Assembly: GCA_017450065.1 (NCBI GenBank)
Contig: JAFSYI010000028.1
Coordinates: 1,172 to 65,171, forward strand
Direction: 5' to 3'
Source of the DNA: Lachnospiraceae bacterium
GTDB taxonomy: Bacteria > Bacillota > Clostridia > Lachnospirales > Lachnospiraceae
DNA length: 64,000 bases
Part shown: positions 16,285 through 61,498 of the stretch, piece after piece
Numbering within the stretch: position 1 is the first letter of the stretch
How the letters are laid out: every line of letters starts with the position of its first letter
The notes under the pieces: model-generated
What the model was told of the DNA's origin: nothing
What the model saw: only the letters and a program-made list of their open reading frames with translations
Database searches by the model: none
Translations under genes and position numbers: made by a program

Positions 16285-16429
16285 AAACATTCCCTTACTT
16301 ATTCCGGCCGCGGATTTTCTTATAATATATCCTTCCCCTGCAGGAAGGTTGTATCTGAATCATTATAATACTTATCTATTATTTTATAAAGAGGCCGGAG
16401 CATAAGGATATTTTTTTGTCCCGTCCCAA

Positions 16430-16454
16430 TTAGTTTACTTATTAAACAAATTAG
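16430..16454. promoter_or_regulatory. 25-bp XylR-type operator overlapping the promoter of the ROK regulator gene
   Basis: TTAGTTTACTTATTAAACAAATTAG matches 19 of 25 positions of the B. subtilis xylO as I remember it (TTAGTTTATTGGATAAACAAACTAA). It overlaps TTTACT (16434-16439), a 17-nt spacer and TATACT (16457-16462). Confidence 0.5.
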
Positions 16455-16497
16455 TATATACTGTTTATATTCTATATGCAGAGAAAGGGATTCCCTC

Positions 16498-22476: not shown

Positions 22477-23364
22477 TTATCTGTTTCCGATTTTTCTTGC
22501 AACTAGAGCAAATCTCCCGTTCTCTTCCTGATATGAACAGGTAACAAGCGTAATGAGCTTATCTCCGTACTCAGCCTTCACTCCCGTTTCATACAGCGAC
22601 TTTGCAATAAGTCTTTCCACGGATCTGTCATAATCTTCCTTATCTTCCGCATCTATGAAATCATAGAATCTGAACGCACTCTCATCAGTATAATACACTC
22701 TGTCATAGAAGGCCGCCATTACCTCATACTCATTTCTTCCTTCCGGTGTATCAAAGTATATTACAGGATGTTCCTCACAGTATTTCTTGTCTTTATATGC
22801 ATCCAGTGTTCCGAACATGCTTCCGTCACGCATATTATGTCCGAATATTATGATATTGTCGCTTTGCGGCTTAACGGAACATCTTGCATCAATAAACGGC
22901 AGTCCTTCATTGCAGTCCTTACCGTTTATATCCTTATGAAGATATCTTTCAGGCTCCTCGGGGGAATACATCACAGGATAATCGATCTTCGTTCCCTCTA
23001 TGCTCAGGTACCCCGCAAAATCAGGATAATCCCTCTGCATTTTTTCATACACGCCGGAAAGAGTGTCTTCCTTGGAGGGCCCGGATTCCTCAAGCCGTTC
23101 AAGTGCCGTTTCGGGCATTTCATATGTCTTAAGCTCGGTATCCTTAAAGGAATAATAATCTTTGGTAAGTATATCTCCCTCAGATACCGTTTCGGCTTCC
23201 TGCCCTGAGCTTTTCCCTTTTACATGGCTTATGATAAGGATAATACCCACTACCAGCCCTATTATAAGCACCAGCAGGATAAGGATAAGCCTTATGAGCT
23301 TCTTCATATCTACTTTTCTTAATTCACCGTCAAATTTAACGTATATTTCCATAGAATTCTTCAA
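22477..23364 (-). CDS. srtB: Class B sortase
   Basis: N-terminal TM helix; FGHNMRDGSMFG and LITLVTCSY (catalytic Cys). The start is uncertain: TTG 23364, ATG 23352 or ATG 23307. Confidence 0.85.
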   Translation of the reverse strand: MKNSMEIYVKFDGELRKVDMKKLIRLILILLVLIIGLVVGIILIISHVKGKSSGQEAETVSEGDILTKDYYSFKDTELKTYEMPETALERLEESGPSKEDTLSGVYEKMQRDYPDFAGYLSIEGTKIDYPVMYSPEEPERYLHKDINGKDCNEGLPFIDARCSVKPQSDNIIIFGHNMRDGSMFGTLDAYKDKKYCEEHPVIYFDTPEGRNEYEVMAAFYDRVYYTDESAFRFYDFIDAEDKEDYDRSVERLIAKSLYETGVKAEYGDKLITLVTCSYQEENGRFALVARKIGNR

Positions 23365-28030: not shown

Positions 28031-29476
28031 TCAGAACTGCATATATTCATAATAAAGCTCAGAGAATTCCTTCTCTTCGCTCAGTCTGATCTCTTCACTT
28101 ATGGATATTATTTCCTCAATATCCGCATCGTTGAAGTTATTATCGCCGTATTTTATGGCTCCCGCCAATGATGTATTGCCTGCAGGCGTTACCTTTGATT
28201 CAAGCTCTCTCGGGATCAGTCCGATCTCAACGGCACTCTTTATATCAAGGCCGTGTCCCATCCCGCCTGATATATATACCTTGCCGATGTTCTTCATCGA
28301 TACTCCGTAGAGCCTCATAAGCAGCTCTATCCCTGCCCTTATGGCTGACTTGGCGATCTGTACATCCCTTATATCTCTCTGGGTAACCGTTACATATTTA
28401 TCGGTACCGGGAACCCGGTACTCATAACCGCTCTCAAAATATGCATCCTTTAATGCACCGTTCTCATCAAATATCCCGTTTCTCCTTAAGTCTGCCATGC
28501 ATCTGATGACATCGGTTGCGACATTAAGCTTCTTTCCCTCAAATGCCGGTCCCGCTGCTGCGGATGCGGTAAGGATATGCTCCCTGTTTCCAAGAGCGAT
28601 CTCTGCATTCGTACCAAGATCAATAAACAGATTTACCTTGTCTGTCTCGGTAAAATCACAATAATACAGTCCCGCAATTATGTCCCCTCCGATAAACGCG
28701 GAAAGATTGGGAAAGATCGTCCATGGTATTACCTTACCGGAATCCATCATGATGTTCTTCTTATGCCACCCAGTATAATACGGCCTGAATGGATAGTTGA
28801 CCATTTCTGCGACAGGATACTCCATAAGCAGGTGGATCATGGTGGTATTTCCTGTAATTATCACATTGGAAGGAGTCTCGGGAAGCTCATCTATGATACT
28901 GTTTATATCATCCATAAGACATTCGCTGAGCTGTTCCGAGTTACCCTTTATCGCTTCCTCGCACCTTGATACGATATCTGCCCCGTAACTGCACTGTGAA
29001 TTTATCCTTGTTCCGGTATATATTACCTCTCCGGCACGTATCATCTTAGCTGCGATCGTCGTGGTTCCGATATCTATCGCCACAAAGGATATATCCCCCA
29101 TACTGAAGGACATTGACAGCTCATCCGTACCTGTAAGGATAGGGGCTTCGCTCTCAAGCATGTCAAGGATCGTTACCCTGAGGTTCTCAACATCATCCGA
29201 CTTGGGTTTAACAAAGCACGCAAGCCTTGCACCCATGGCATTCTCCTCATCGGTAAGGAGATACATCTCCTCATATGCCGGTTCACTCATGTTTTCTTCA
29301 TCGAGCATGATACGACATTTCCCGCATGTATGCCTTCCGTTACAGAAAGCCCTTATCATAATGCCCTGCCGTCTGAGTGCCTCAAGAACCGTTTCATCTT
29401 TTTTGCAGTTGATAATATATTCTTTATCCATATGCCCTCTTGTCGCAAGTCTTCTGCAGCGAAACAGTTCATTCAC
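28031..29476 (-). CDS. 2Fe-2S ferredoxin domain fused to a DUF4445/ASKHA ATPase (RACo-like corrinoid reductive activase family)
   Basis: Plant-type 2Fe-2S motif CNGRHTCGKCRI...ACF, then an ASKHA-like DIGTTTIAA...DLGTNAEIA. An alternative start is MDKEY at 29431. Confidence 0.7.
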   Translation of the reverse strand: MNELFRCRRLATRGHMDKEYIINCKKDETVLEALRRQGIMIRAFCNGRHTCGKCRIMLDEENMSEPAYEEMYLLTDEENAMGARLACFVKPKSDDVENLRVTILDMLESEAPILTGTDELSMSFSMGDISFVAIDIGTTTIAAKMIRAGEVIYTGTRINSQCSYGADIVSRCEEAIKGNSEQLSECLMDDINSIIDELPETPSNVIITGNTTMIHLLMEYPVAEMVNYPFRPYYTGWHKKNIMMDSGKVIPWTIFPNLSAFIGGDIIAGLYYCDFTETDKVNLFIDLGTNAEIALGNREHILTASAAAGPAFEGKKLNVATDVIRCMADLRRNGIFDENGALKDAYFESGYEYRVPGTDKYVTVTQRDIRDVQIAKSAIRAGIELLMRLYGVSMKNIGKVYISGGMGHGLDIKSAVEIGLIPRELESKVTPAGNTSLAGAIKYGDNNFNDADIEEIISISEEIRLSEEKEFSELYYEYMQF

Positions 29477-29498
29477 TGATACCGTCTCATAACAGATT

Positions 29499-29609
29499 TC
29501 AGTCCTCTATATCATCTTCGGCTGCAACTGCCGATATTACAGATGTAACTGCGGACACCACCACCGCTACCACGATAACAATAAACACGATTCCAACAAA
29601 TAAGATCAT
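29499..29609 (-). CDS. Unannotated 36-aa hydrophobic micro-protein
   Basis: ATG at 29609 with GAGAGG 8 nt upstream, overlapping the stop codon of the upstream gene. Sequence is MILFVGIVFIVIVVAVVVSAVTSVISAVAAEDDIED: one TM helix plus an acidic tail. It is below the ORF-track size cutoff. Confidence 0.4.
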   Translation of the reverse strand: MILFVGIVFIVIVVAVVVSAVTSVISAVAAEDDIED

Positions 29610-29621
29610 AATCCCAACCTC

Positions 29622-30812
29622 TCAATCCGTAAAATTATCAAAATAACCCTGAATAAGTATGAACGGTGTTCCCTTGTCCCCGGATCCGCTGGTAAGATCG
29701 CAAAGAGAACCGATCAGATCCGTAAGCTGTCTGGGTGTAGTACCCTGAGAAGCCATATCACCCTTTAAATCCTTGTTCTTCTCTTTGATGCTTCTTGTTA
29801 TAGCGTCCTTTAACTCCTGACCCGACAGATGCTTAAAATCATTATCCGCAAGATATTTAAGCTTAAGCTCGTTGGGTGTTCCCACAAGGCCGTCCGTGTA
29901 AGCGGGCGAAACAACGGGATCCGCGAGTTCCCAGATCTTGCCCTTGGGATCCTTGAAGGCTCCGTCACCGTATACCATTACCTCAACATGCTTACCTGTA
30001 AGAGAAAGCATCTGCTTCTGTATATCTTCAACCAGACTCTGGCAGTCTCTTGGGAACAGCTTAACCTTATCCTCCGTGGATTTATTTGAACCCAAAAGGC
30101 CGTATTTCTCATTATATCCACTGTCACCGACAGGTGAGTTCAATATGTCGTCAAGTCCCAGAACCGTCTTTGCCCCGGCTTTCGCAAGTATCCTCTTCGT
30201 CCTTGCCCTGGAATGAATATCGCATGTTATTACGCAGTCGGTATAATCAAGTACCGTCTTTGCCTGATTGGCAAATACTATTTCAACATCCGCACCGGCT
30301 TCGCGTATGATATTTGAATAATAATCAACATAATCCACTCCGGTGAATTCGTGCTTGTTATCACCGAACAGCTCCCTGTATTTCTCAAGGCTTAATACGT
30401 CGCTGTACGGATTGATCCCCGCTTCATCCAGCTGGTCATAGGTAAGCAGCGCATTTCCCACCTCGTCACTGGGATAGCTTAACATCAGTATAACCTTGCG
30501 GCATCCCATTGCTATACCCTTAAGGCAGATGGCGAAACGGTTACGTGACAGTATCGGGAATATAACTCCGACTGTACCTCCGCCCGTTTTCTTCCTGACA
30601 TCATCTGCTATATCTGCAACAGTGGCATAATTACCCTGGGCTCTTGCCACGATGGATTCGGTAAGAGCTATAATATCCCTGTCCCTTATCTTGATATTCT
30701 CACTTGCGGCCGCATCCATGATACAGCTTACCGCTATATCAACAAGATCGTCTCCCTGACGTATTATCGGCCCCCTGATTCCTCTTGATACTGTTCCTAT
30801 TAATCGTTCCAT
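29622..30812 (-). CDS. F420-0:gamma-glutamyl ligase-like (CofE/PF01996-like) family protein, long form
   Basis: N-terminus GPIIRQGDDLVDIA...DIIALTESIVARAQG resembles the CofE fold. Start is the ATG at 30812, after AAGAAGGTG. Recognised from memory only. Confidence 0.5.
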   Translation of the reverse strand: MERLIGTVSRGIRGPIIRQGDDLVDIAVSCIMDAAASENIKIRDRDIIALTESIVARAQGNYATVADIADDVRKKTGGGTVGVIFPILSRNRFAICLKGIAMGCRKVILMLSYPSDEVGNALLTYDQLDEAGINPYSDVLSLEKYRELFGDNKHEFTGVDYVDYYSNIIREAGADVEIVFANQAKTVLDYTDCVITCDIHSRARTKRILAKAGAKTVLGLDDILNSPVGDSGYNEKYGLLGSNKSTEDKVKLFPRDCQSLVEDIQKQMLSLTGKHVEVMVYGDGAFKDPKGKIWELADPVVSPAYTDGLVGTPNELKLKYLADNDFKHLSGQELKDAITRSIKEKNKDLKGDMASQGTTPRQLTDLIGSLCDLTSGSGDKGTPFILIQGYFDNFTD

Positions 30813-30934
30813 AACAACACCTTCTTTTCGCATATCCTAAGAGTCAATACCCTGTACCCCCACGGATTAAAGTCCGCTATTACGATTATACAATATACCT
30901 TATAATATTTACAATAGAGTAGTATAATAATCCT

Positions 30935-30999: not shown

Positions 31000-32181
31000 T
31001 TATAAGTACTTCTTCAGGTCATCAACCTTGTTAAGGGCTTCCCATGGAAGATCAAGGTCATTACGTCCGAAATGTCCGTATGCCGCTGTCTGCTTATAGA
31101 TGGGACGGCGAAGATCAAGCATCTTTATTATACCTGCAGGACGAAGATCGAAGTTCTCACGTACTATCTTAACAAGCTCATCGTCAGATACCTTACCTGT
31201 TCCGAAGGTGTCTATCATGATGGAAGTAGGCTGCGCAACGCCGATAGCATAAGAAAGCTGGATCTCACATTTGTCGGCAAGCCCTGCCGCTACTATATTC
31301 TTGGCAACATATCTTGCAGCATATGCAGCCGAACGGTCAACCTTGGTGCAATCCTTACCGGAGAATGCCCCGCCGCCGTGACGGGCATATCCGCCGTAGG
31401 TATCAACTATTATCTTACGTCCGGTAAGTCCGGCGTCTCCGTGAGGCCCTCCTATGACGAAGCGTCCCGTGGGATTTATAAAAAACTTGGTATTGTCATC
31501 AATGAGCTCTGCGGGAAGCACGGGATCGAAAACATATTTCTTAATATCCTTATGTATCTGTTCCTGGGTAACGTCATCATCATGCTGGGTAGACAGTACG
31601 ACAGCTTCCAGCCTTAAAGGCTTGCCGTTCTCATCATATTCAACCGATACCTGACTCTTTCCGTCCGGTCTTAAATACTTAAGTGTCCCGTCCTTACGAA
31701 CCTCTGTGAGCTTCTTGGCAAGCTTGTGGGCAAGTGAGATCGGATAGGGCATATACTCTTCCGTCTCATTGGTCGCATAACCGAACATCATTCCCTGATC
31801 GCCCGCTCCCGTATCAAGATCATCGGTAAGCTTTCCTTCCTTTGCTTCAAGCGCCTTGTCAACGCCCATAGCGATATCGTCCGACTGCTCGTCAATTGCT
31901 ACGAGAACCGCACAGGTATTGCCGTCAAAGCCGTATTCCGACTTGGTATAGCCTATCTCCTTTACAGTATCGCGGACTATCTTCTGCATGTCTACATAAG
32001 CCTTGGTCGTTATCTCACCCGTGATCAGCACAAAGCCTGTACAGCAGGCCGATTCACATGCAACGCGGCTCATCGGATCCTGCTCCATGCATGCATCAAG
32101 TATCGCATCCGAAATAGCGTCGCAGACCTTGTCCGGATGTCCTTCCGTCACAGATTCGGAAGTAAATAAGTATTTTTCCAT
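31000..32181 (-). CDS. metK: S-adenosylmethionine synthetase
   Basis: [25 protein letters not shown] and GGGAFSGKD are canonical MetK motifs. Confidence 0.95.
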
Positions 32182-32220: not shown

Positions 32221-32372
32221 TCAAAAAATCCGCTTATATAAGCGGATCCGTTACTCTATGATAATCAAATCCTCTTATTGCTCGATTACTCGCTCAGGTT
32301 GGCACCTTCCTTACGGGGTTGCCGTGGCTTCACAGATCCTATGTATCTCCACCACTCTGAATAAGAGATTTT
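32221..32372 (-). promoter_or_regulatory. SAM-I (S-box) riboswitch with terminator expression platform
   Basis: The minus strand reads CTCTTATTCAGAGTGGTGGAGATAC...GATCTGTGAAGCCACGGCAACC...GGTGCCAACCTGAGC...AATAAGAGG. A hairpin ATCCGCTTATATAAGCGGAT plus T6 follows (32222-32247). It lies directly upstream of metK. Confidence 0.85.
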
Positions 32373-32536: not shown

Positions 32537-33619
32537 ATGAGAAGAATAAGAACCTCGGATCTGGTTCCGGGAATGACTACCGCTGAGGATGTCTATTCCT
32601 ACAATAACCAGCTGGTCGTCCCCAACAACACAGTGCTTACAGACAAGATGATCACCCGTCTTGAGTTCTATTCCGTTCTGGCCGTAAGGGTGAAGGACGA
32701 AGAGGTTAAGCATACGGATGAGATCTCTCCCTTTGACCTGCCTTCTTATTCGGAGAGGATCAAGGCAAGCAAGGAGTTCAAGGAATTCGAAAGGACCTTT
32801 ATCGCGACCACCGAGAATTTCAAACAGAATTTAAGATCCATAGTCGATGAAAGAGCTCCCATAAATACCGAGGAGCTGTTTGACCACATATCCAGTCTTA
32901 TGACTGCACAGTCAAGTACGATCTCCATCTTCGACATGCTGCATAATATGCGGCAGTATGATGACATGACCTATGCACATTCAATTAATGTAGGCCTTAT
33001 CTGCAATGTTTTTGCCAAATGGCTTAAGCTCCCGCCTTCAGAAGTGGAGAAGCTGACTCTGTGCGGGCTTATGCATGATATCGGAAAGCTGGTCGTGCCC
33101 GATAAGATAATAAGAAAACCGGATAAGCTGACACCCAACGAGTATAATATAATCAAGACACATACTCTTCAGGGGTATAAAATACTCAAAGAATACGAGA
33201 ACATTAATGACGATGTCAAGGAAGCCGCTCTGATGCATCATGAAAGATGCGACGGAACCGGATATCCGCTGGGGCTTACCGGGGATAAGATAAACAAATA
33301 TGCCAAGATCGTTGCGATAGCAGATGTATATGATGCCATGACTGCAGCGAGGGTATACCGCGGACCCCTGTGTCCGTTCAAGGTTATAGGCATATTCGAA
33401 TCGGAAGGACTGAATAAATACGACAGTCATTTCATACTTATCTTCCTTGAGCACATAGCAAGTACATATATCAAAAATCGTGTGCGATTAAGCAACGGAA
33501 TGGAGGGTGAAGTGGTGTTCATGAACAAGACTGCCCTTTCCCGTCCGATGATCCAGTGCAGAAACCGTTTTGTCGATCTGAGTAAGGAAACTGATATTTA
33601 CATAGAAACCTTCGTATAA
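32537..33619 (+). CDS. HD-GYP domain protein (c-di-GMP phosphodiesterase family)
   Basis: HDIGKLVVPDKIIRKP..., HHERCDGTGYPLGL and ADVYDAMT. Confidence 0.85.
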   Translation: MRRIRTSDLVPGMTTAEDVYSYNNQLVVPNNTVLTDKMITRLEFYSVLAVRVKDEEVKHTDEISPFDLPSYSERIKASKEFKEFERTFIATTENFKQNLRSIVDERAPINTEELFDHISSLMTAQSSTISIFDMLHNMRQYDDMTYAHSINVGLICNVFAKWLKLPPSEVEKLTLCGLMHDIGKLVVPDKIIRKPDKLTPNEYNIIKTHTLQGYKILKEYENINDDVKEAALMHHERCDGTGYPLGLTGDKINKYAKIVAIADVYDAMTAARVYRGPLCPFKVIGIFESEGLNKYDSHFILIFLEHIASTYIKNRVRLSNGMEGEVVFMNKTALSRPMIQCRNRFVDLSKETDIYIETFV

Positions 33620-36742: not shown

Positions 36743-37540
36743 TCATATGATCCTTAAATACCAGCACAGCATAAATGCAAGATCCGCAACACCGAACACA
36801 AGTGCCGCGATAACAAGTCCCTTAAGTCTTGAGAATTCCTTATTTATCCTGCCAAAGGTCTGGGCATCCTGCTCTGCCAGCGCATTCTGCACATTCCTGT
36901 AGCATTTCACGTTTTCCTTATGAACATGATCCTCAAGATCTATAAATGCCTTTTCGGCAGTCGCCTTATCGAAGGTATTATCCTCTTTTTCCTGCTCTGC
37001 CTCTGCATTCTTCTCTATTATCTCTTCCTTAATAAGTGTGACTATTTCGGCATTTCCTGCTTCAAGCTTTTCTCTTATCATCGAGATTACTTCCGTATTG
37101 TCGAGCACCTTCTTAAGAATATCCGTATTGGATAATACAGCCTTTAATATCTCTTCCTTGTTTTCCTCTGACAGACTCTTTATATCAATCCTTTCCTCGC
37201 TGTCCATATCTGTCTTTATATCATTCAGAAGGCGGTAGTTCTTATTAAGAAGCTTGGAATTACCGTCAACTGCGCGGAGTATTTCCTTATCGGCCGAATC
37301 TCTCTCGATACGGGCATCGTAGAACATATCCTGGATTGATTCAAGCTGCTCTTCATTGCTGTTTATCACCAAATCCTTAATCTGCTCGGGAGTCACGGAA
37401 TTCTGCATCATTCTCCTGCGCTCGTAATCTCTTTCCCTCTCTGCTCTTAACCTGTCCTGATTCTCCCTTGAAGCCTGGTTCCTGTTTAAATTAAGATTCT
37501 TCTCAAATCTGCTTGCTATCCTGCTGATACTGCTTTCCAT
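36743..37540 (-). CDS. Hypothetical coiled-coil protein with a C-terminal TM anchor
   Basis: ATG at 37540 lies after GGGAGAGGA. The body is charged and helical; the C-terminus is LVIAALVFGVADLAFMLCWYL. Confidence 0.5.
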   Translation of the reverse strand: MESSISRIASRFEKNLNLNRNQASRENQDRLRAERERDYERRRMMQNSVTPEQIKDLVINSNEEQLESIQDMFYDARIERDSADKEILRAVDGNSKLLNKNYRLLNDIKTDMDSEERIDIKSLSEENKEEILKAVLSNTDILKKVLDNTEVISMIREKLEAGNAEIVTLIKEEIIEKNAEAEQEKEDNTFDKATAEKAFIDLEDHVHKENVKCYRNVQNALAEQDAQTFGRINKEFSRLKGLVIAALVFGVADLAFMLCWYLRII

Positions 37541-37840
37541 AATAATCCTCTCCCTGTTACATCCCTGACAAATTCTTACTATCCCTTCCAAAGCACATAG
37601 ATATATAGATATTATCATCTTTAAATGAGAAAAACAAGGATTTCTGTTTTTGGTAAAATCTTATATAAAAGTTCCTTTGTTTTATTCATTTTTGTGCGTT
37701 TTAACTATCTGTTAAAAATTCGTTCATTATTTGTTCATAAAATATTGCTAATATTTTACTTGAGCAGAAGAGAGAAGAAGAGAAAAGTTGATAGATTTTT
37801 TCATAATATTGCCCAGGTGATTCTCATCCACCTGGGCACT

Positions 37841-38030: not shown

Positions 38031-38684
38031 TTAAGCCTGCTTCACATCCCCATTCTTCTTGGCTTCCCGGATCTCTTCATTAAGCTGGAGCATCCTCTCA
38101 TCAAGTGCCGACACCATCTGAGCACACTCATAGAGCTCCTTCTTAATCTCTTCAGGAGCATTCATATCGAACTTATAATTCATCTTATGCTCAAGGCTTG
38201 CCCAGAAATCCATGGCAACCGTTCTGATCTGGACCTCTACCTTCGTATCGATCACGCTGTCCGACAGATATATCGGAACACTGACTATCATATGATAGCT
38301 CTTATATCCGCTCTCTTTGGGATTCTTGATATAATCCTTTATATACAGAACCTTAACATCGCTCTGGTTGGCCAGCATGTCGGCAACCCTGTAAATATCC
38401 GACGTAAATGAACAGATAACCCTTATCCCGGCAATATCATTTACGTACTTCTGCATATTCTCAAGAGTAGACTCATAGCCTCTCTTCTTAAGCTTCCTTA
38501 CAATGCTTTCCGATGTCTTAACACGCGATTTGATATGTTCTATCGGATTATACTGATGAATGTGCTGGAACTCATCATTAAGTATCTCCAGCTTGGTTCC
38601 TACTTCCTTAAGTGCCGAATTATATAAAAGGATCATGGTCTGCCAGTCATCTACCTGATCCACTCCGTTAGGTTTGTACTCCAC
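38031..38684 (-). CDS. Small alarmone synthetase (RelQ/RelP-type GTP pyrophosphokinase)
   Basis: YNPIEHIKSRVKTSESI, DIAGIRVICSF, GYKSYHMIV and VEVQIRTVAMDFWASLEHK. GTG start lies after GGTGAGG. Confidence 0.85.
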   Translation of the reverse strand: MEYKPNGVDQVDDWQTMILLYNSALKEVGTKLEILNDEFQHIHQYNPIEHIKSRVKTSESIVRKLKKRGYESTLENMQKYVNDIAGIRVICSFTSDIYRVADMLANQSDVKVLYIKDYIKNPKESGYKSYHMIVSVPIYLSDSVIDTKVEVQIRTVAMDFWASLEHKMNYKFDMNAPEEIKKELYECAQMVSALDERMLQLNEEIREAKKNGDVKQA

Positions 38685-39457: not shown

Positions 39458-40525
39458 TTGATCATTCAAAGCAGTACGGTAGGAATGGAATCCGTGAGGA
39501 GATACTCCTCATTGCGCATGGATGCCTACGGGACCGGCAGCAGCATAATGGCTGTGACAGCGCCCGGTAATAATGCAACGGGAGGCTTAACATTAAACGA
39601 AAGCAACAGCAGGCAGATTGGCAACGAGGCACATGGCAGCTTCCGTAACTCACTGGAGAACCTTAAGAAGCGGTTCGAAACGATGGGAACCTCGCGTATT
39701 ACCCATAATCACGATGAAGAAAGTGCCATGAACAGGATAAAAACCGAATGTATCATCTATCTTCTGCGTCTTTTGTTCGGGCGGGAGACAGATGATGATG
39801 TTGATACGAAGAGTTTTAATGAAACCTTCAATGATACTTCCGGCAGTAAAGGATCCGGCGTCTTAAAAAATTATGAGGCGCATTACTTTGCGGAAAGTGA
39901 AGAGTTAAGTTATCACACAGCCGGTACAGTGGTAACCGCAGACGGAAGAGAACTGGATTTTAACTTAAGCTTTGAGATGAGCAGAAGCTTCGAGAAATAT
40001 TACGGGAAGGAGCATACATTCAATACAGGAAAGCTGTGCGATCCTCTTGTTATCAATCTTGATACGGATATTGCAGGTGTTTCGGATCAGAAATTTATGT
40101 TCGATATAGACAGCGACGGAGTAAAGGACAATATCTCCATGCTTAATAAAAGCAGTGGATTTCTGGCTCTTGACAGAAACGGCGACGGAAAGATAAATGA
40201 CGGAAGCGAGCTGTTCGGAACAAAATCCGGAGATGGTTTCAGGGATCTTGCTGCCTATGATTCCGACGGTAACGGCTGGATTGACGAAGCCGACTCCATT
40301 TGGAATAAACTTCTTATATATTCAATGAATGAAGACGGGAGTTCTTCCGTGTACGGACTGTCAGAAAAGGGAGTAGGCGCAATATACCTCGGGAGCGTTT
40401 CCACCAACTATTCGCTTAATAACAGTATGACCAATAATGTTAACGCGGTAATACGTAAAACAGGCATGTTTTTATATGAAAACGGACAAGCCGGCACTAT
40501 TCAGCACTTAGACGTAGCAAGCTGA
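39458..40525 (+). CDS. Hypothetical protein with DxDxDG-type calcium-binding motifs and no signal peptide
   Basis: TTG start 8 nt after AAAAGGGGG. Motifs are DIDSDGVKD, DRNGDGKINDGSELFG and DSDGNGWIDEAD. Confidence 0.55.
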   Translation: MIIQSSTVGMESVRRYSSLRMDAYGTGSSIMAVTAPGNNATGGLTLNESNSRQIGNEAHGSFRNSLENLKKRFETMGTSRITHNHDEESAMNRIKTECIIYLLRLLFGRETDDDVDTKSFNETFNDTSGSKGSGVLKNYEAHYFAESEELSYHTAGTVVTADGRELDFNLSFEMSRSFEKYYGKEHTFNTGKLCDPLVINLDTDIAGVSDQKFMFDIDSDGVKDNISMLNKSSGFLALDRNGDGKINDGSELFGTKSGDGFRDLAAYDSDGNGWIDEADSIWNKLLIYSMNEDGSSSVYGLSEKGVGAIYLGSVSTNYSLNNSMTNNVNAVIRKTGMFLYENGQAGTIQHLDVAS

Positions 40526-40592: not shown

Positions 40593-41966
40593 TCAGAGAA
40601 AACTCAATGCCGCAAAGACAGCTGCCATTACAAAAAATATCAGTATAAGTGACAGAATCCATGCTGCAAGACTTACATAAGCGGCTGTCTTCTTCTGTCC
40701 GATGGCATCTGCTTTCTTAAACAGATACGCAGGAGGGAAAAGCAGTACGGCGAGTATTTTCCATCCGATTCCCACTTCGGCCCCTAACTGTCTCATATAA
40801 TTACTGTCTAATGCCATTATCACTATATAAACGACAATTGCAAAAACACTGCCAATCTGTATCCCGATCTTTGAAAGGATCAGATTTATTACGCCCATGA
40901 TAAACGGTGCCAGTCCAAATGCCCATGACAAAATATCCAGCATCTTCATAGCCGGATCATCATCAAAGGTTCCGGCAGAACTAAAGGATGATGGGACGGA
41001 TTTCGGACCGCTGTACATTGTCCCGCCTGTTACCGCAGGCTTCTCATCATATGCTCCCGATGAAGCTGAATTCATATTATCATAGAGTGGCTCACTGCCC
41101 GTACCGGCTGAGACGCCTGAATCCGTTCCGCCAAAGAAGCTTGAACCTGAATCGCCGGTAGAACCTGAGCTTACAGTGATTCCCTTATCAACACCCATAC
41201 TGCCAAAGAACGAGAATCCACCGCTGTCTGAGCCTGAATCCTGACTGCTTGCGGATCCACCAGGAAAACCCGGGCCCGGTTCAGAACCCTGAGTCTGCGA
41301 CGGCTGCTCTTTGTGATCCCCCTTATTGTCCGGTTCTTCATCAAATCCAAATAGCTGGTCATAATCATCATCCATACCGTAATCGGAACCCGAATCAAGC
41401 TTCTTCTCGTTGGAAGACGACGCACCTGCGCCACTGCCCTTATCGGATGCAATACCCGGTGTACTTATTCCCTCATCCTGATTCTCAAAGAAGAAGTCCA
41501 GATCCCCATCGAAATCGGAACCGGAATCAAGTCCCGTATCATCCTGACCATAGTTGTCATCTGTCGCTGTATCCTGTACTGACTCAGTCTTCGGTTCACT
41601 ATCTGTTTCTGACATTACACTGCTGAACAGGCTGCTCCCCGAACCGGCAAACAATGTATCAGGCTCTGATGATTCCGTCTCCAATCCTGGCATAACTGAA
41701 GACTGATCATGCAGATTACTCTTCTCATCAATCTTATCAGTCCTCCGGCTTAATGCATCGGTTTCAGCTTCATCCCGGGTATTATCTACCACGGTCCACA
41801 TTTTCAATACTTCTTTTTCATCAGGGCTTAATGCCTCATAATCCGATGAGGTGATCTCAAGATCCTTCAGCATAGCACCGCACTTGGTACATTTAACCTT
41901 CTTCCCTTTATTGCTGAGCTTGAACAGTTTATCACAGTTTTCACAATAATACAGGTATTTATCCAT
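40593..41966 (-). CDS. Zinc-ribbon, acidic low-complexity, multi-TM membrane protein (hypothetical)
   Basis: CENCDKLF...CTKCGAM (CxxC...CxxC). A D/S/G-rich region of about 250 aa follows, then 4 C-terminal TM helices. The ATG at 41966 lies after GGAGA. Confidence 0.55.
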   Translation of the reverse strand: MDKYLYYCENCDKLFKLSNKGKKVKCTKCGAMLKDLEITSSDYEALSPDEKEVLKMWTVVDNTRDEAETDALSRRTDKIDEKSNLHDQSSVMPGLETESSEPDTLFAGSGSSLFSSVMSETDSEPKTESVQDTATDDNYGQDDTGLDSGSDFDGDLDFFFENQDEGISTPGIASDKGSGAGASSSNEKKLDSGSDYGMDDDYDQLFGFDEEPDNKGDHKEQPSQTQGSEPGPGFPGGSASSQDSGSDSGGFSFFGSMGVDKGITVSSGSTGDSGSSFFGGTDSGVSAGTGSEPLYDNMNSASSGAYDEKPAVTGGTMYSGPKSVPSSFSSAGTFDDDPAMKMLDILSWAFGLAPFIMGVINLILSKIGIQIGSVFAIVVYIVIMALDSNYMRQLGAEVGIGWKILAVLLFPPAYLFKKADAIGQKKTAAYVSLAAWILSLILIFFVMAAVFAALSFL

Positions 41967-41990
41967 GTCTGTCTCCATAATCAGCTGATT

Positions 41991-48279: not shown

Positions 48280-49212
48280 TTATGATCGGTTCTTCTTATG
48301 CTTTCCCTCAAATGGAATAAATACCCATCCAAACAAACCCATTAATACCGCTTTGACCAGGGTACAATATGACTTCCTGATATCTGCCCTCACAACTGCC
48401 TCCGATTCTGCCGGAGTGAAGTAATACAGACAGCTTGTATATGCCCACGGCCTGTGCCAGGAACGGTTCAGCTTACCATATGGCACTGTTGCAACACGCC
48501 CCCAGGTCGTAAGCTTTATAAGCGGTTCATCTCCCTTATTCCCATTCTCACCATCCACAATTCCGGTTATCGTCATAAAATGCGACTTTACGCCTTTTTT
48601 ACTGTCATATCCCTGATTAAGCTCTCCGCTCCTGCCGGAATAAAGCCTGAGCGGATGCCTGTTCATCGATGTAAGCATCACTACCGAACCAGCCTTATCA
48701 AGACCTTCTTTTATAAAATCAAGCCCCTTATCATATGAACAGAAGGCTGTGGGAATGGCATGCGCATGCAGTAAAAGTCCCTGCTTCCTGCAGTATTTAA
48801 GCGTACCACGTATAAACCCGTTAAGACTCATTCCGAAGCTTGGAGGAACTACCTTAAACACCTTGTTTCCACGCTTTACCGCATCATATATCCGCCTTAT
48901 TAAAGGAATCTCAAATACAAACATTGACTTATATATCCTTCCCATAAATCCGGTAAAATCATCCTTATAATACGATTCGTCCGTTAATGTCCTAAGATCT
49001 TTGGAAACCTTCTCATCCACAAACACCGATGGATATCTGTGCGCAAGGATTCTCAGCATATTTGCACAGGCAACCGATCCACAGCCTGCAAAAGCCATGG
49101 TATTTGACTTATACCATCCCTGATCCCCGCCATAATATGTAGATCCCGTATCTCTGTCGGTAAGAGTCAGAGGATCATATTCCGTTGGATTTATGTTTAT
49201 ATCATCATTCAT
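48280..49212 (-). CDS. Hypothetical protein, possible papain-like/C39-like cysteine peptidase fold
   Basis: AFAGCGSVACANML is a candidate nucleophile region and SHFMTITG a candidate His. A C-terminal TM helix is present. The ATG at 49212 lies after GGTGAT. Confidence 0.4.
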   Translation of the reverse strand: MNDDININPTEYDPLTLTDRDTGSTYYGGDQGWYKSNTMAFAGCGSVACANMLRILAHRYPSVFVDEKVSKDLRTLTDESYYKDDFTGFMGRIYKSMFVFEIPLIRRIYDAVKRGNKVFKVVPPSFGMSLNGFIRGTLKYCRKQGLLLHAHAIPTAFCSYDKGLDFIKEGLDKAGSVVMLTSMNRHPLRLYSGRSGELNQGYDSKKGVKSHFMTITGIVDGENGNKGDEPLIKLTTWGRVATVPYGKLNRSWHRPWAYTSCLYYFTPAESEAVVRADIRKSYCTLVKAVLMGLFGWVFIPFEGKHKKNRS

Positions 49213-49299
49213 AAAGATCACCGTAAGCGTTTATTAAATCATAGAATAGTGAATTTCATCAGAAATTCACTATTCTATAATACCATAAAGGTGATAATA

Positions 49300-55334: not shown

Positions 55335-56438
55335 ATGGCGAAACGTAAACTTGTAAGCACCAGTACCCTTAAGCGCGGAATGAAGATCGAGCAGGCAATA
55401 GTAGATGCTCACGGTCATGAAATGATCGCACGCGGAATGGTGCTGGATGACTTTCAAATAGAATACTTAAGAGATCACGGAGTGGCGGTCTATATCAATG
55501 ATGGTGAATCCGATGATGTGGATATATCCGAGCTCGAACGCAATCTGCCCGTAGAGACGAAGAAGATGATAGAAGAAGTCAGGGAAGAGGATCCTGCCAA
55601 GGTTGAGCTGAACGAAGAAGTCTGCAAACGCGTCGGAGAAGGTATACAATACCTGTTTAACAATACCGACTCCGATAACTTCATGGAGACAACCACCAAT
55701 ATCTCCAATGAGCTGATAAATGCCATCACAAGCAGCAATGCCGTAGCTATCGATATCAATATGATCAAGGTAAGTGATGAATATACCTTTAAACACAGTG
55801 TGGATGTGGCGACGATGGCAATGGTCATCGGTCAGGGATGCGGACTTACCCAGGATCAGTTAAGAGAACTCGGTATATCCGGACTGCTGCATGATCTGGG
55901 TAAATCACAGATACCGCTTGAAGTGCTTAACAAGCCCGGACGCCTTGACGATAAGGAATTCGAGCTTATGAAGCAGCATTCCCTGTTTGGTTTCAAGATC
56001 CTTAAGGAGAAGAATCAGCTCCCGAATCCCATTATGATGGGTGTGCTTCAGCACCACGAAAAGATCAGCGGTAAGGGATATCCTCTGGGAACAGCCGGCG
56101 ATTCCATCCATAAGTACGCAAAAATAATCGCTGTTGCAGATGTATATGATGCTCTGGTTACGGAACGCCCGTATAAAAAGGCCTTCCCGAAAAGGGAAGC
56201 CGTTGAAATGATCCTCGCAATGACACAGGATCTTGACATGGAAGCAATGCAGAGCTTCTTTAACTGTGTGATACTTTTCCCTGTTGACAGCATAGTGACG
56301 CTGTCCTCGGGAGAGCCTGCCAAGGTGGTCAAAAATAACCGTAATAACTGTCTCAGACCCACCGTAGTGGGTCTGAAAACAGGAAGACTTTATGATCTGT
56401 ATAATGATTTCAGCTGTGCCAGCCTGGTAATCGTTTAA
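55335..56438 (+). CDS. HD-GYP domain protein (second paralog)
   Basis: HDLGKSQIPLEVLNKP, HHEKISGKGYPLG and ADVYDALV. Confidence 0.85.
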   Translation: MAKRKLVSTSTLKRGMKIEQAIVDAHGHEMIARGMVLDDFQIEYLRDHGVAVYINDGESDDVDISELERNLPVETKKMIEEVREEDPAKVELNEEVCKRVGEGIQYLFNNTDSDNFMETTTNISNELINAITSSNAVAIDINMIKVSDEYTFKHSVDVATMAMVIGQGCGLTQDQLRELGISGLLHDLGKSQIPLEVLNKPGRLDDKEFELMKQHSLFGFKILKEKNQLPNPIMMGVLQHHEKISGKGYPLGTAGDSIHKYAKIIAVADVYDALVTERPYKKAFPKREAVEMILAMTQDLDMEAMQSFFNCVILFPVDSIVTLSSGEPAKVVKNNRNNCLRPTVVGLKTGRLYDLYNDFSCASLVIV

Positions 56439-58078: not shown

Positions 58079-58717
58079 GTGATACGTGATATAAACATGG
58101 AAGAAATATCGGACGGAAAGCGTTACCGATCTGCGGACATGGTTAAGATAGGTTGTGCGGAATGTAAGGGTTGCAGCGAATGCTGCCGCCTGACGGATGA
58201 TACCATCATACTTGATCCATATGATATATATGAGCTGTGCAGAGGACTTAATACTACCTTTGACTCCCTGCTTAACAATTCAATGATAGAGCTGGGAATT
58301 GCCGACGGGCTTATGCTGCCGCATCTTAAGGTAGATACGGATGGACACGGCTGCACTTTTCTGAGTCCCGAAGGCAGATGCACCATTCACAGCTTCCGCC
58401 CGGGCTTCTGCCGGCTGTATCCTCTCGGACGTATATACGAGAACGGTTCATTCTCATATTTCCTGCAAATAAACGAATGCCCTTATCCCAATAAGACAAA
58501 GGTAAAGATTAAGAAGTGGCTCGGAATAGAGAATCTGTCAGAATATGAAGCCTATATAATGAAATGGCATAAAATACATGCAAAAGCCAGGGAAGAAGCA
58601 GCTTTGATCCACGATCACCGTGAGCTTTCCGGGTATCTGGCAGCTTTTTTGAGACGATATTTTCAGATTCCGTATGATCTTACAAGACCATTCCATGAGC
58701 AGTTTACACAGCGCTAA
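58079..58717 (+). CDS. YkgJ-family cysteine-cluster protein (CxxCxxCC zinc/iron-chelating domain)
   Basis: GCAECKGCSECCRL. GTG start lies 8 nt after AAAGGAGA. Confidence 0.75.
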   Translation: MIRDINMEEISDGKRYRSADMVKIGCAECKGCSECCRLTDDTIILDPYDIYELCRGLNTTFDSLLNNSMIELGIADGLMLPHLKVDTDGHGCTFLSPEGRCTIHSFRPGFCRLYPLGRIYENGSFSYFLQINECPYPNKTKVKIKKWLGIENLSEYEAYIMKWHKIHAKAREEAALIHDHRELSGYLAAFLRRYFQIPYDLTRPFHEQFTQR

Positions 58718-58860
58718 AATAAACAATTTCTGCAATATAGCTTGATTTTTTCACACTTATTATTTAGATTATATCTATACTACTAACGGAATCATGAGAA
58801 ACCTCCGATATAATATATACCCTTTTTATTGTTTTGACCATTCGGAACAGACGTGAACAT

Positions 58861-61455
58861 ATGATATCAAAAGGTCTTGTCTATACAAATGAAAACTGTG
58901 TCGGATGCAATAAGTGTATTACAGCCTGCAGCTGCATTGGCGCCTGTGTACCTGTCGAAGACCCGCAGTCCGGCAAATTCCGCATCGAGGTTGACGGTGA
59001 AAGATGTATCGCCTGCGGTGCCTGTTTTGATGCCTGTGTACACAATGCAAGAGAATATACAGATGATACAGATGCTTTCTTTGAAGCTCTTGAGCGCGGT
59101 GAAGAGTTTTCTATGCTTATTGCCCCTTCATTTCCCGCCAACTATCCGGACGAATACGAGGCAGTTCTCGGAGAGCTGAGTACCCTTGGTGTAAACCGCT
59201 TCATTAACATAGCCTTTGGCGCAGATATAGCAACCTGGTGTTACGTTAATTATATGCAGCAGAATGATTTTGTCGGGGGGATATCCCAGCCCTGCCCTGT
59301 TGTTGTCAGCTATATCGAAAAATATGAGCCGAAGCTTATAAACAGGCTGTTTCCCATTCAGAGCCCTCTTATGTGCGCTGCGATCTATGCCCGTAAGCAT
59401 CTGAAGATAAAGGATAAGCTTGCTTTTCTTAGTCCATGTATCGCCAAAAAGACGGAGATAAACGATCCCAATACACATGGCCTTATATCATACAATGTAA
59501 CCTTTTCACATCTTATGAAAAGGATGCGCAGCAAAGATCTTAACAAAAAGCAGTCCTTTGACCGTATGGAATACGGGCTTGGCGGAATATGGCCCATGCC
59601 CGGAGGATTAAAGGAAAACATAGCATGGCTTCTCGGTGAGGATGTCTTTATCCGTCAGGTTGAGGGTGAAAAACATCTGTATAACTATCTTAAGCACAAC
59701 GCAGAGAAAATATCGGACGGAAGTACGGGCTTTTCCCTTATTGACGTACTTAACTGTAAGAACGGATGCCTGTGCGGAACGGCTGCGGAACCGGAAATAG
59801 CGGAAAATGAGGATCCTCTCATTTGGCTTCTGAAAGCAAGATCCTCCATCAAGAGCTCTCCCGTCGATAAGGCATGGCGCAGTGAACTGTCTCCAAAGAA
59901 GAGGCTGGAAGCCCTTAATAAAAGATATGAGTATCTTAAGCTGTCGGATTTCGAAAGAAAATATACAGATAAATCATCTCATGTTCCCGTAAGATATCCG
60001 GATGAAGATGAACTTAAAGATGTCTTTGCCGATATGCGGAAATATACCCATGAAACACAGCATATCAACTGTACCGCCTGCGGAAATGAAACCTGTTATG
60101 ACATGGCCGTTTCCATTTTTAACGGTTTTAACAACAAGCATAACTGTGTCTATTATGTAAAAAACATCGTGGATGAGGAAGAAGCCAAGCTCCGTTTCCT
60201 TGCAGAACACGATCAGTCACTGCTCATATACAACAGAAGAGCCATAACAGAGAAGCTTGAATCGGATTTCTCCGATGACGATACCTTCAGTGTAATACTT
60301 GCGGATCTAAATAATTTCAAGGGCATAAACGCCACCTACGGAAATAACGGCGGTGATATGATCCTTCGTAATATTTCATCCGCACTTGAGAATCTCTGCT
60401 CAAAAAAGAACTGGATATGCGGAAGATTCGGGGGCGACGAATTCATGATAATTGTTCCGGGTTCAAATATATTGCCCAACGATCCTGTCATAGAAGAGCT
60501 TATAACCGCATTTTCCACCCCCACACCTCTTGGCGGGGAATGGATATCCGCCACCGTAAGCATAGGTATCTCCAATTCTGACGGTGTAACTCATGTCAAG
60601 GAGCACATCGCCTGTGCGGAAAATGCCATGTATCTCGCCAAAAGCAAGGGCAAGAACTGTGTTATCGAGTATTCAGCAGAGCAGAAGGCCAAGCAGAAAG
60701 AAGAGAGCGAGATCAAGGCAAAGGTACTGTATGCACTTGAAAATGACGGATTCTTTATGGTTTATCAGCCTCAGGTAGATGCCGCAACAAGAAGCGTAAA
60801 CGGATATGAGGCTCTGGTTCGTATGAAGACACCGGGCGTCTATCCGGGTCAGTTCATCCCGATAGCGGAGAAGAACGGCTGGATATGGCGTATAGGCCGT
60901 ATAACAACAGAGCTTGTCGTAAAACAGCTTGCCGAATGGATCGGGAAAGGTTACACCCCTCATCCCGTTTCGATCAACTTTTCATCAAACCAGCTGAGTG
61001 ATGAAAGCTATGTGGATTTCCTTGAAGACCTTCTTAAGACCTACAACATTCCGTCATCACTTGTTGAGATAGAAATAACCGAGGGGCTGTTCCTTGAGAA
61101 ATCCTCACAGGCCCAGGATCTGTTTGATCGTTTTAAGAAGCTTGGCATCCGTCTTCTCATGGATGATTTCGGAACAGGTTACTCGTCCCTCGGATATCTA
61201 ACCTATATACCGGTGGATGTGATCAAGCTCGATAAATCTTTGGTGGATACCTATCTTGTTGAAGGAAAGGACAGCTTTATCCATAATGTCATCCGTCTTA
61301 TGCATGATCTTGACAAGGAAATGCTTATAGAGGGTGTTGAAGAGAAGTGGCAGTATGACCGGCTGCGTGAAATGGGCGCAGATACAATACAGGGCTACTA
61401 TTTCAGCAAGCCAATCCCGCCGGATGAAGCGATAGTTTTCAGGATATCCTCATAA
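58861..61455 (+). CDS. [FeFe]-hydrogenase-like sensory domain (2x[4Fe-4S] ferredoxin, H-domain-like region, Cx2Cx4Cx16C) fused to GGDEF and EAL domains
   Basis: CVGCNKCITAC and CIACGACFDAC are ferredoxin motifs. SQPCP, SPCIAKKTE and NCKNGCLCG are H-cluster-like motifs. CTACGNETC-x16-C follows. GGDEF and EAL motifs are RFGGDEF, YEALVR and DDFGTGYSS. The start is ATG 58861 (or TTG 58834), with a weak SD. Confidence 0.8.
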   Translation: MISKGLVYTNENCVGCNKCITACSCIGACVPVEDPQSGKFRIEVDGERCIACGACFDACVHNAREYTDDTDAFFEALERGEEFSMLIAPSFPANYPDEYEAVLGELSTLGVNRFINIAFGADIATWCYVNYMQQNDFVGGISQPCPVVVSYIEKYEPKLINRLFPIQSPLMCAAIYARKHLKIKDKLAFLSPCIAKKTEINDPNTHGLISYNVTFSHLMKRMRSKDLNKKQSFDRMEYGLGGIWPMPGGLKENIAWLLGEDVFIRQVEGEKHLYNYLKHNAEKISDGSTGFSLIDVLNCKNGCLCGTAAEPEIAENEDPLIWLLKARSSIKSSPVDKAWRSELSPKKRLEALNKRYEYLKLSDFERKYTDKSSHVPVRYPDEDELKDVFADMRKYTHETQHINCTACGNETCYDMAVSIFNGFNNKHNCVYYVKNIVDEEEAKLRFLAEHDQSLLIYNRRAITEKLESDFSDDDTFSVILADLNNFKGINATYGNNGGDMILRNISSALENLCSKKNWICGRFGGDEFMIIVPGSNILPNDPVIEELITAFSTPTPLGGEWISATVSIGISNSDGVTHVKEHIACAENAMYLAKSKGKNCVIEYSAEQKAKQKEESEIKAKVLYALENDGFFMVYQPQVDAATRSVNGYEALVRMKTPGVYPGQFIPIAEKNGWIWRIGRITTELVVKQLAEWIGKGYTPHPVSINFSSNQLSDESYVDFLEDLLKTYNIPSSLVEIEITEGLFLEKSSQAQDLFDRFKKLGIRLLMDDFGTGYSSLGYLTYIPVDVIKLDKSLVDTYLVEGKDSFIHNVIRLMHDLDKEMLIEGVEEKWQYDRLREMGADTIQGYYFSKPIPPDEAIVFRISS

Positions 61456-61461
61456 ATAAGA

Positions 61462-61494
61462 GTGTGAGTCACGGGATACATCCATGACTCACAC
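61462..61494. terminator. Bidirectional hairpin between the GGDEF-EAL gene and the CapA-family gene
   Basis: GTGTGAGTCA (61462-61471) pairs with TGACTCACAC (61485-61494). Confidence 0.65.
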
Positions 61495-61498
61495 CGCC

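Follow-up and report, generated by a model that had tools for sequence, protein, structure and literature searches.

The subject of this report is a gene located in a 64-kb stretch of DNA from a Lachnospiraceae bacterium (assembly GCA_017450065.1, contig JAFSYI010000028.1; the whole stretch of 64,000 nucleotides is referred to as the window), which encodes an [FeFe]-hydrogenase-like module fused to a GGDEF-EAL tandem. Judging from its sequence, the protein would be an H-cluster-based sensor of H2 or redox state that gates the turnover of cyclic di-GMP (c-di-GMP), mainly its hydrolysis, and we assign this reading a probability of about 0.6. A previous annotation made from the letters alone (the sequence-only reading) had proposed H2- or redox-gated coupling to c-di-GMP turnover. 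This proposal holds as a candidate, with the refinement that the conserved activity is probably EAL-catalyzed hydrolysis, as in many members the GGDEF domain is degenerate.

In the mechanism that we propose, the fusion would be a cytoplasmic one-component signaling protein. Its input part (residues 1-430) would be a non-catalytic, HydS-like module with an H-cluster site and three [4Fe-4S] clusters, two of them relays and the third C-terminal, and without the proton-relay pathway for fast turnover. Binding or oxidation of H2, the presumed signal, at an H-cluster whose occupancy we infer, or the electron poise conveyed via the F-clusters, would change the conformation of the module. This change would travel through the helix that follows C429 to a dimeric GGDEF-EAL output; the helix, probably a coiled coil in the dimer, would relay to whichever output is attached. 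The EAL domain would hydrolyze c-di-GMP, while the GGDEF domain would be a GTP-dependent allosteric partner or a second, opposing activity. In a fermenting rumen bacterium, the H2/redox state would set the level of c-di-GMP, the principal bacterial switch from motility to attachment and back, and hence the motile or attached lifestyle. That high H2 raises phosphodiesterase activity and favors motility is a guess at the phenotype, and its direction is pure speculation.

The open reading frame (ORF) spans 58834 (TTG) or 58861 (ATG) to 61455 on the + strand. Because the homologues begin at the ATG, with the consensus MxxxxxLVYTNENC in their alignment, the product is taken to have 864 amino acids. 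A motif search found every motif listed in the sequence-only reading at exactly the nucleotide coordinates given there; its residue numbers had been counted from the TTG and were 9 too high. The domains follow one another in the order (i) two [4Fe-4S] ferredoxin motifs, (ii) H-domain, (iii) Cx2Cx4Cx16C motif, (iv) helix, (v) GGDEF, and (vi) EAL (Table 1). The protein is predicted to be soluble and devoid of transmembrane segments, as a hydropathy scan revealed no 19-residue segment hydrophobic enough for a membrane helix. A chance or mis-framed ORF was ruled out by the E-values of the domains and by a full-length alignment of 118 members.

The hydrogenase-like, putative sensor module

Pfam, NCBIfam and Foldseek agreed that the N-terminal 440 amino acids form the F- and H-domains of an [FeFe]-hydrogenase, as the sequence-only reading had held. 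The Pfam family Fe_hyd_lg_C (PF02906) was matched over profile positions 5-244 of 245 with an E-value of 8.7e-23 and a score of 81.7 bits (cutoff 22.1), and Fer4_7 was matched at residues 12-63 (E 7e-5). When compared by phmmer with the sequences of the PDB, the module matched only [FeFe]-hydrogenases and ferredoxin-like subunits, the best match being T. maritima HydA (2.8e-15), with CpI at about 1e-7. An AlphaFold2 (AF2) model of residues 1-445 reached a predicted local distance difference test score (pLDDT) of 88.9 and a predicted template modeling score (pTM) of 0.90. Its 50 best PDB matches in Foldseek were all [FeFe]-hydrogenases, with E-values of 8e-18 to 2e-13 and query TM-scores (TMq) of 0.54-0.67. 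The NCBIfam models of group A and group B1 hydrogenases scored far below their cutoffs.

The F-domain contains the motifs CVGCNKCITAC (residues 13-23) and CIACGACFDAC (residues 49-59), which are predicted to be the sites of two accessory [4Fe-4S] clusters. Conservation was counted over 231 relatives, 117 of them of the GGDEF-EAL type and 114 of a type fused to a methyl-accepting chemotaxis protein (MCP) domain. The cysteines of the two motifs (C13/16/19/23 and C49/52/55/59) are kept in 113-117 of the 117 and in 113-114 of the 114, respectively, and the four cysteines of the C-terminal motif in 229-231 of the 231. At the latter motif, the FeS family (PF04060) was matched at residues 401-430 with an E-value of 1.4e-4 and 22.0 bits, just below the cutoff of 23, which many homologues exceed. 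The Cx2Cx4Cx16C pattern had been named in the sequence-only reading as an accessory-cluster signature of putative sensory hydrogenases, and it has been published as such for the M2e and M2f types (PMC8163306).

The residues of the H-domain were mapped by alignment to CpI, T. maritima HydA and T. kivui HydA1 (Table 1). The alignment to CpI and HydA placed the four [4Fe-4S]H cysteines in the ligand columns, as predicted. The proposed match of NCKNGCLCG to MxCxxGC proved correct for the cysteine columns and one residue off in its mapping: L297 corresponds to CpI M497 and N298 to A498. The four H-cluster cysteines, P89, E199, P169, G248-G249 and C172 were found to be invariant in the 231 relatives, the only exception being one Tyr at C303. 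At least 90% of them retain K196, A88, S168 and P247; S90 lay outside this family-wide scoring.

The relay cysteine of the CCP pair is indeed replaced by proline (P144), and Pro is found at this position in 222 of the 231 relatives. The CpI segment with E279, E282 and R286 is deleted from the fusion protein in the alignment. The alignments thus indicate that the four cluster ligands and the diiron-subsite pocket are present, and that the whole group A proton-transfer pathway is missing. Because of P144, F164 and the E279-R286 deletion, the protein would not be a prototypical catalytic hydrogenase. The conserved GG is followed by an invariant Leu (L250), which hints that the glutamate of group D (the TamHydS E252/E289 pathway) is absent as well. 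Cys172 (nt 59374-59376) lies three residues past the pocket motif equivalent to CpI S323-P324, at a position where group A has Ile. Known enzymes do not use it as an H-cluster ligand, and it might stand in for the relay cysteine that has been lost.

The putative sensory types M2f (group C) and M2e (group D) carry two N-terminal [4Fe-4S] motifs and a C-terminal Cx2Cx4Cx16C motif; C299 and the proton-pathway residues are gone, and M353 and M497 are replaced (PMC8163306). The module of the fusion protein likewise has two N-terminal motifs and an exact Cx2Cx4Cx16C, lacks C299, and has other residues in place of M353 and M497, which by these motifs makes it a putative sensory module of the group C/D type. 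The earlier suggestion of a sensor rather than a catalyst is therefore sustained by both the missing proton pathway and the group C/D traits.

The predicted c-di-GMP output

In the AF2 model, a single helix (residues 430-449) leads from the last cluster ligand, C429, directly into the GGDEF domain. An alignment of the junction showed that GGDEF-EAL and MCP paralogues can be aligned up to about residue 440, after which they diverge.

Both output domains had been described as intact, and their catalytic residues were found to be in place. The GGDEF domain contains RFGGDEF (residues 522-528; 60430-60444) together with D482, K487, N490 and D499. It has no RxxD inhibitory (I) site, which is optional for the GGDEF family, and carries KKNW at the position of that site, five residues ahead of GGDEF. 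The EAL domain contains YEALVR (from residue 649) and DDFGTGYSS (from residue 768). On the evidence of these residues, both active sites of the window's protein look competent.

The two domains are conserved to different degrees within the family. E650, R654, N706, E738, E741, D768, D769, K789, E824 and Q844 of the EAL domain are kept in 117-118 of 118 sequences, as are the guanine-binding N490 and D499 and R522 of the GGDEF domain. In contrast, only 47 of the 118 have Glu at the fourth position of the GGDEF signature (Gln in 37, Val in 13 and Arg in 9). Relative to the query, the median identity falls from 72% in EAL through 63% in the F- and H-domains and 60% in the FeS motif to 36% in GGDEF. 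Because the EAL residues are invariant and the GGDEF signature has degenerated in many members, what the tandem family conserves is probably the hydrolysis of c-di-GMP by EAL. The GGDEF domain would most likely act as a GTP-binding regulatory partner, a role known from other tandem proteins, and the window's clade may have kept cyclase activity too.

The GGDEF domain is the least conserved part of the family, with a median identity of 36% where EAL has 72%. Its catalytic Glu has been lost in 71 of the 118 sequences, P0122 (GGDKF; 77% identical to the query) among them, and every EAL catalytic residue is invariant. This makes it improbable that c-di-GMP synthesis is the main output, with the protein working as a regulated diguanylate cyclase or as a bifunctional synthesis/hydrolysis switch, even though R[FY]GGDEF and the four accompanying residues are retained both in the window's protein and in the clade closest to it, and the missing I-site would mean no product inhibition. 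A further point in favor of synthesis is that the same module is fused to GGDEF alone in many clusters, and these GGDEF-only fusions retain the canonical GG[DE]EF.

The GGDEF-EAL half matches the structures of PA0575, MorA, DosP and RbdA with E-values of 1e-33 to 1e-24 and 26-31% identity. It also matches NCBIfam equivalogs, including the DosP and PRK10060 models, and because these scores lie far below the equivalog cutoffs, the protein is not regarded as an orthologue of any named GGDEF-EAL enzyme. LapD GGDEF-EAL is another of the best structural matches, and tandem GGDEF-EAL proteins are often degenerate, which could suggest an inert receptor or scaffold that, like LapD or FimX, binds c-di-GMP without turning it over, the Fe-S domain being structural or a slow metabolic hydrogenase. 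Such a function is highly improbable, since the EAL metal-binding and catalytic residues are all present and invariant, unlike in LapD or FimX, and the proton-transfer pathway for metabolic hydrogen turnover is missing. The preferred reading of the output is a phosphodiesterase governed by the sensor module.

Relatives, maturation genes and gene context

Searches with the full-length query retrieved at least 117 clusters, formed at the 90% identity level, whose proteins have about 865 amino acids, the order Fer4, Fe_hyd_lg_C, FeS, GGDEF, EAL and identities from 98% down to 42%. Most of these relatives come from metagenomes of the rumen and of herbivore guts. Their database names are generic, either 'EAL domain-containing protein' or 'diguanylate cyclase (GGDEF)-like protein'. 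The 98%-identical copy belongs to a Lachnospiraceae metagenome-assembled genome (MAG), GCA_024691125.1, in which the gene order is as in the window. In species-representative genomes, at least about 30 loci (L007-L036) align over at least 790 of the 864 residues, with an identity of at most 59% among the matches listed. All of these are MAGs from the gut of sheep, yak, buffalo, deer, goat, cattle or horse, mostly of Lachnospiraceae, with a few bins labeled Oscillospiraceae, Ruminococcus, Treponema or Acidaminococcaceae. The GGDEF-EAL fusion is therefore a populous family already present in the databases and not a one-off.

The 440-aa module alone retrieves thousands of proteins. The best-scoring ones are 56-61% identical to it, and almost all are Lachnospiraceae proteins of about 650 amino acids that join the module to an MCP signaling domain. 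A library of 50%-identity clusters contains 636 that match the module at E≤1e-30, with proteins of 434-1693 amino acids. Pfam scans of the representatives of the best 60 of these clusters identified (i) MCPsignal in 18, (ii) HisKA in 18, HATPase_c in 17 and receiver domains in 19, (iii) GGDEF in 17, of which 7 also have EAL, and HD-GYP in 1, and (iv) PAS in 5-7 and an AraC-type helix-turn-helix in 1. Outputs related to c-di-GMP were thus found in more than one quarter of these 60 nearest representatives, and the module is, as far as domain content can tell, a general input domain of bacterial signal transduction. A neighbor-joining tree of the module, built without support values, interleaves GGDEF-EAL and MCP clades.

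The module-bearing proteins P0241-P0389 include hybrid histidine kinases with receivers, GGDEF alone and HD-GYP (the last also in P0076). Stand-alone forms of about 445 amino acids occur as well (P0067 and P0284), and in P0241 (1495 amino acids) the module begins at residue 775 and not at the N-terminus.

To locate maturases, all fetched loci were screened for motifs and then scanned with NCBIfam. In five loci, genes of the hydE/hydG/hydF set lie directly beside, and on the same strand as, an MCP-type gene with the same sensor module (Table 1). HydE (TIGR03956) scored 533-540 bits, HydG (TIGR03955) 873-919 bits and HydF (TIGR03918) 524 bits, against cutoffs of 255-326. The five maturase-linked sensors are 57-60% identical to the window's module, with which they share SQPCP, SPCIAKK.E, LNC..GC and Cx2Cx4Cx16C, and carry an MCP domain in addition. 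Of all the evidence, the adjacency of these sister genes to hydE/hydG/hydF argues most strongly for a real H-cluster protein rather than an Fe-S-only relic, though for the window's own gene the argument is indirect. The position of a sensor gene inside a maturase cluster suggests that sensor and maturation are co-regulated.

Several observations weigh against an H-cluster-based H2 sensor. Neither a hydrogenase nor a hydEFG gene was detected in the 64-kb window by Pfam scans or by tblastn with verified HydE, HydG and HydF; the scans covered ORFs of at least 150 amino acids judged to be genes at 2-49 kb, plus the CxxCxxCC and HD-GYP genes described below, and the region of 49-64 kb was covered via the Pfam annotation of the 98%-identical locus L001. 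No such gene lies within 10 kb of any GGDEF-EAL-type relative examined, and the neighborhoods of these relatives are not conserved. Pfam found no PAS domain in the fusion protein at E≤0.1, and the helix leads straight into GGDEF, so that the PAS domain following the C-terminal cluster, which is a trait of group C (M2f), is lacking. Pro occupies the C299 position, compared to Ala in both characterized sensors. The full-length model has a pTM of only 0.60, and the relative placement of the input and output domains is uncertain. It should also be noted that H2 sensing by groups C and D has never been shown experimentally, and reviews refer to it as putative (PMC8924675). As for TamHydS, H2 causes changes in its secondary structure but does not reduce its C-terminal cluster (PMC13104023).

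The lack of maturase and hydrogenase genes in the window and beside every GGDEF-EAL-type relative examined would also suit a sensor of redox state, O2 or NO that holds [4Fe-4S] clusters only, without a diiron subsite and with no role for H2 as a ligand. Like eukaryotic Nar1/NARFL, such a protein would be of the Fe-S-only kind, and it would report ferredoxin/redox poise or oxidant exposure to GGDEF-EAL. Gene contexts unrelated to H2 metabolism and the unusual Pro next to the bridgehead amine (compare PMC10407848) point in the same direction. We nevertheless consider it unlikely that the diiron subsite is missing, since the residues that would hold it (the equivalents of K358, E361, A230-P231, S323-P324 and C503) are invariant or kept in at least 90% of the 231 relatives, and sister genes with an identical motif set are contiguous with hydE-hydG-hydF in the five loci. 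Moreover, TmHydS and TamHydS, which have these features, assemble an H-cluster and react with H2 (PMC8163306). The H-cluster-based sensor remains our preferred reading.

The fusion gene is preceded by an AT-rich intergenic region of 143 nt that probably holds its own promoter, although only weak matches to the promoter consensus were found there. It is followed by a hairpin that is likely to be a bidirectional terminator, and the gene is probably monocistronic. Rfam detected neither a c-di-GMP riboswitch nor any other RNA element near it. The gene directly upstream (58079-58717, +) encodes a CxxCxxCC (PF03692, YkgJ-like) putative Zn/Fe-chelating protein. In L004/L018, a copy with 42% identity is found 6 kb away from the homologue; other loci have none, and this gene is probably unrelated to the fusion gene. 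Two genes of the HD-GYP type (HD_5/HD), at 32537-33619 (+) and 55335-56438 (+), are 28% identical to each other and are candidates for further c-di-GMP phosphodiesterases. The second is located 2.4 kb upstream of the fusion gene, and is otherwise a neighbor only in the near-identical MAG; the same holds for the CxxCxxCC gene. A conserved operon partner was rejected, as the neighbors differ in every GGDEF-EAL-type locus inspected, and the fusion gene appears to stand alone.

Some other features of the window were recorded. Another gene concerned with nucleotide second messengers, at 38031-38684 (-), encodes a RelA_SpoT-domain protein of 217 amino acids that is likely to be a small alarmone ((p)ppGpp) synthetase. 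An S-adenosylmethionine (SAM) riboswitch (RF00162, 68.6 bits) at 32272-32367 (-) lies upstream of the gene for S-adenosylmethionine synthetase (31000-32181, -), which is an ordinary arrangement. A 1516-aa protein with about ten Big_2 immunoglobulin-like repeats, likely a sortase-anchored surface adhesin, is encoded at 22477-27886 (-) and overlaps a sortase gene at the start of the latter. At 28031-30833 (-), the genes for a RACo-like protein (Fer2, RACo middle and C-terminal ASKHA domains) and for a 403-aa protein of the F420-0:gamma-glutamyl ligase family lie side by side, a pairing unexpected for Lachnospiraceae. No Pfam match at E≤1e-5 was obtained for the six sizeable ORFs at 36743-37618 (-), 39458-40525 (+), 40593-41978 (-), 48280-49221 (-), 16320-16832 (-) and 16986-17612 (-).

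Table 1. The fusion gene and its parts in window coordinates, the H-domain residues with their CpI equivalents (listed by the role of the residue in CpI), and the maturase-linked sensor loci.
Feature	Position	Strand	Basis or remarks
Intergenic region, AT-rich	58718..58860	+	143-nt gap after CxxCxxCC gene; probable promoter
Coding sequence, hydrogenase-GGDEF-EAL fusion	58861..61455	+	864 aa plus stop, complete; ATG start
F-domain, two CxxCxxCxxxC motifs (aa 10-63)	58888..59049	+	Fer4_7
H-domain (Fe_hyd_lg_C, aa 85-306)	59113..59778	+	Pfam, CpI/HydA alignment, invariance, fold
L1 SQPCP	59284-59298	+	aa 142-146
L2 SPCIAKKTE	59431-59457	+	aa 191-199
L3 LNCKNGCLCG	59749-59778	+	NCKNGCLCG = aa 298-306
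Accessory-cluster motif C404-x2-C407-x4-C412-x16-C429, PF04060-like	60070..60147	+	motif, Pfam
Signaling helix, aa 430-449	60148..60207	+	AF2 model, junction alignment
GGDEF domain, aa 449-599	60205..60657	+	Pfam PF00990, 1.1e-26
EAL domain, aa 622-851	60724..61413	+	Pfam PF00563, 1.1e-60, 205 bits
Hairpin, 14-bp stem	61461..61495		between fusion gene and convergent downstream gene; likely terminator
Diiron pocket	A88-P89-S90		CpI A230-P231-S232
Proton relay	P144		CpI C299
[4Fe-4S]H ligand	C145		CpI C300
Proton pathway	F164		CpI S319
Diiron pocket	S168-P169		CpI S323-P324
Frames diiron site	S191		CpI M353
[4Fe-4S]H ligand	C193		CpI C355
Diiron pocket	K196		CpI K358
Diiron pocket	E199		CpI E361
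Frames diiron site	L297		CpI M497
[4Fe-4S]H ligand	C299		CpI C499
Ligand, bridges to diiron site	C303		CpI C503
hydE-hydG-hydF-sensor	L038:288-6345		sensor P0001, best match to query module, 60%
sensor-hydE-hydG-hydF	L050:9956-15682		isolate Lachnospiraceae bacterium AD3010, cultured
sensor-hydG	L055:10001-13418		
sensor-hydG, hydF further downstream	L057:1848-8026		
sensor-hydE-hydG-hydF	L078:9977-15619		

Comparison with known sensors

The HydDB classification recognizes kinase-linked (C1), chemotaxis-linked (C2, putative) and phosphatase-linked (C3) [FeFe] sensors and contains no c-di-GMP-linked [FeFe] class; a diguanylate cyclase-linked (putative) class is found only in [NiFe] group 2c (PMC5037454). 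A literature search identified no paper joining an [FeFe]-hydrogenase domain with GGDEF or EAL, although an earlier mention is possible. With GGDEF in 17 of the 60 nearest cluster representatives, the [FeFe] group C scheme omits a sizeable class. Rather than a new protein, the fusion represents a known kind of sensor with an output variant not yet classified. We further propose, while rating the odds at somewhat less than even, that the SQPCP-type module marks an unrecognized c-di-GMP-linked branch of the sensory [FeFe]-hydrogenases, with GGDEF-EAL, GGDEF-only and HD-GYP outputs beside the kinase- and MCP-linked forms, which would let rumen and gut Lachnospiraceae translate the ambient partial pressure of H2 directly into a choice between a motile and a sessile life.

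Covalent fusion to a phosphodiesterase/cyclase makes HydS signaling directly assayable in vitro and, if the proposed function is true, would offer the first simple biochemical readout of H2 signal transduction by a HydS-type H-cluster. Putative H2-sensing [FeFe]-hydrogenases are abundant in the rumen and gut, where they are thought to set the electron partitioning of fermenters, with a bearing on methane. The fusion protein would then link H2 to c-di-GMP in fiber-degrading Lachnospiraceae.

The closest known counterparts are the MCP fusions (P0001, P0029, Roseburia hominis L056 and AD3010 L050), which we infer from the HydDB table to be of the C2 type. They have in common with the fusion protein the whole 440-aa module (57-61% identity), the SQPCP, SPCIAKK.E, LNC..GC and Cx2Cx4Cx16C motifs, a point of fusion within the helix that follows the final cysteine, and the same taxa and habitats. 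They differ in their output, which is an MCP hairpin (chemotaxis) instead of GGDEF-EAL, and in that five MCP-type genes, compared to none of the GGDEF-EAL genes examined, lie beside hydE/hydG/hydF genes.

TmHydS of Thermotoga maritima (group C, M2f) and TamHydS of Thermoanaerobacter mathranii (group D, M2e), the only two putative sensory [FeFe]-hydrogenases characterized so far, were compared by their published features, not by sequence. Both have the two N-terminal motifs, all cysteine ligands and the Cx2Cx4Cx16C motif, and both have likewise lost C299 and the group A proton pathway (PMC8163306). At the positions of M353 and M497 the fusion protein has Ser and Leu, the same pair as TamHydS, whereas TmHydS has Gly and Ser (PMC8163306). 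Position 299 is Pro in the fusion protein and Ala in TmHydS and TamHydS (PMC10407848). TmHydS has a PAS domain, which is not found here, and TamHydS has no fused output, while in the fusion protein an enzymatic output is attached in cis.

The proposed logic, by which a hydrogenase senses H2 and regulates c-di-GMP, is the same as that put forward for [NiFe] group 2c (PMC5037454). The latter, however, belongs to an unrelated metalloenzyme superfamily and works with a separate diguanylate cyclase, whereas here a single polypeptide with a predicted phosphodiesterase output would be involved. Finally, the layout of a sensor followed by a helix, GGDEF and EAL is shared with gas- or redox-sensing tandem enzymes such as E. 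coli DosP and P. aeruginosa RbdA/PA0861, MorA and PA0575; in the DosP-like enzymes the sensor is of the PAS/heme kind (a heme-PAS responding to O2 in DosP), and in the fusion protein its place is taken by the hydrogenase-like Fe-S/H-cluster module.

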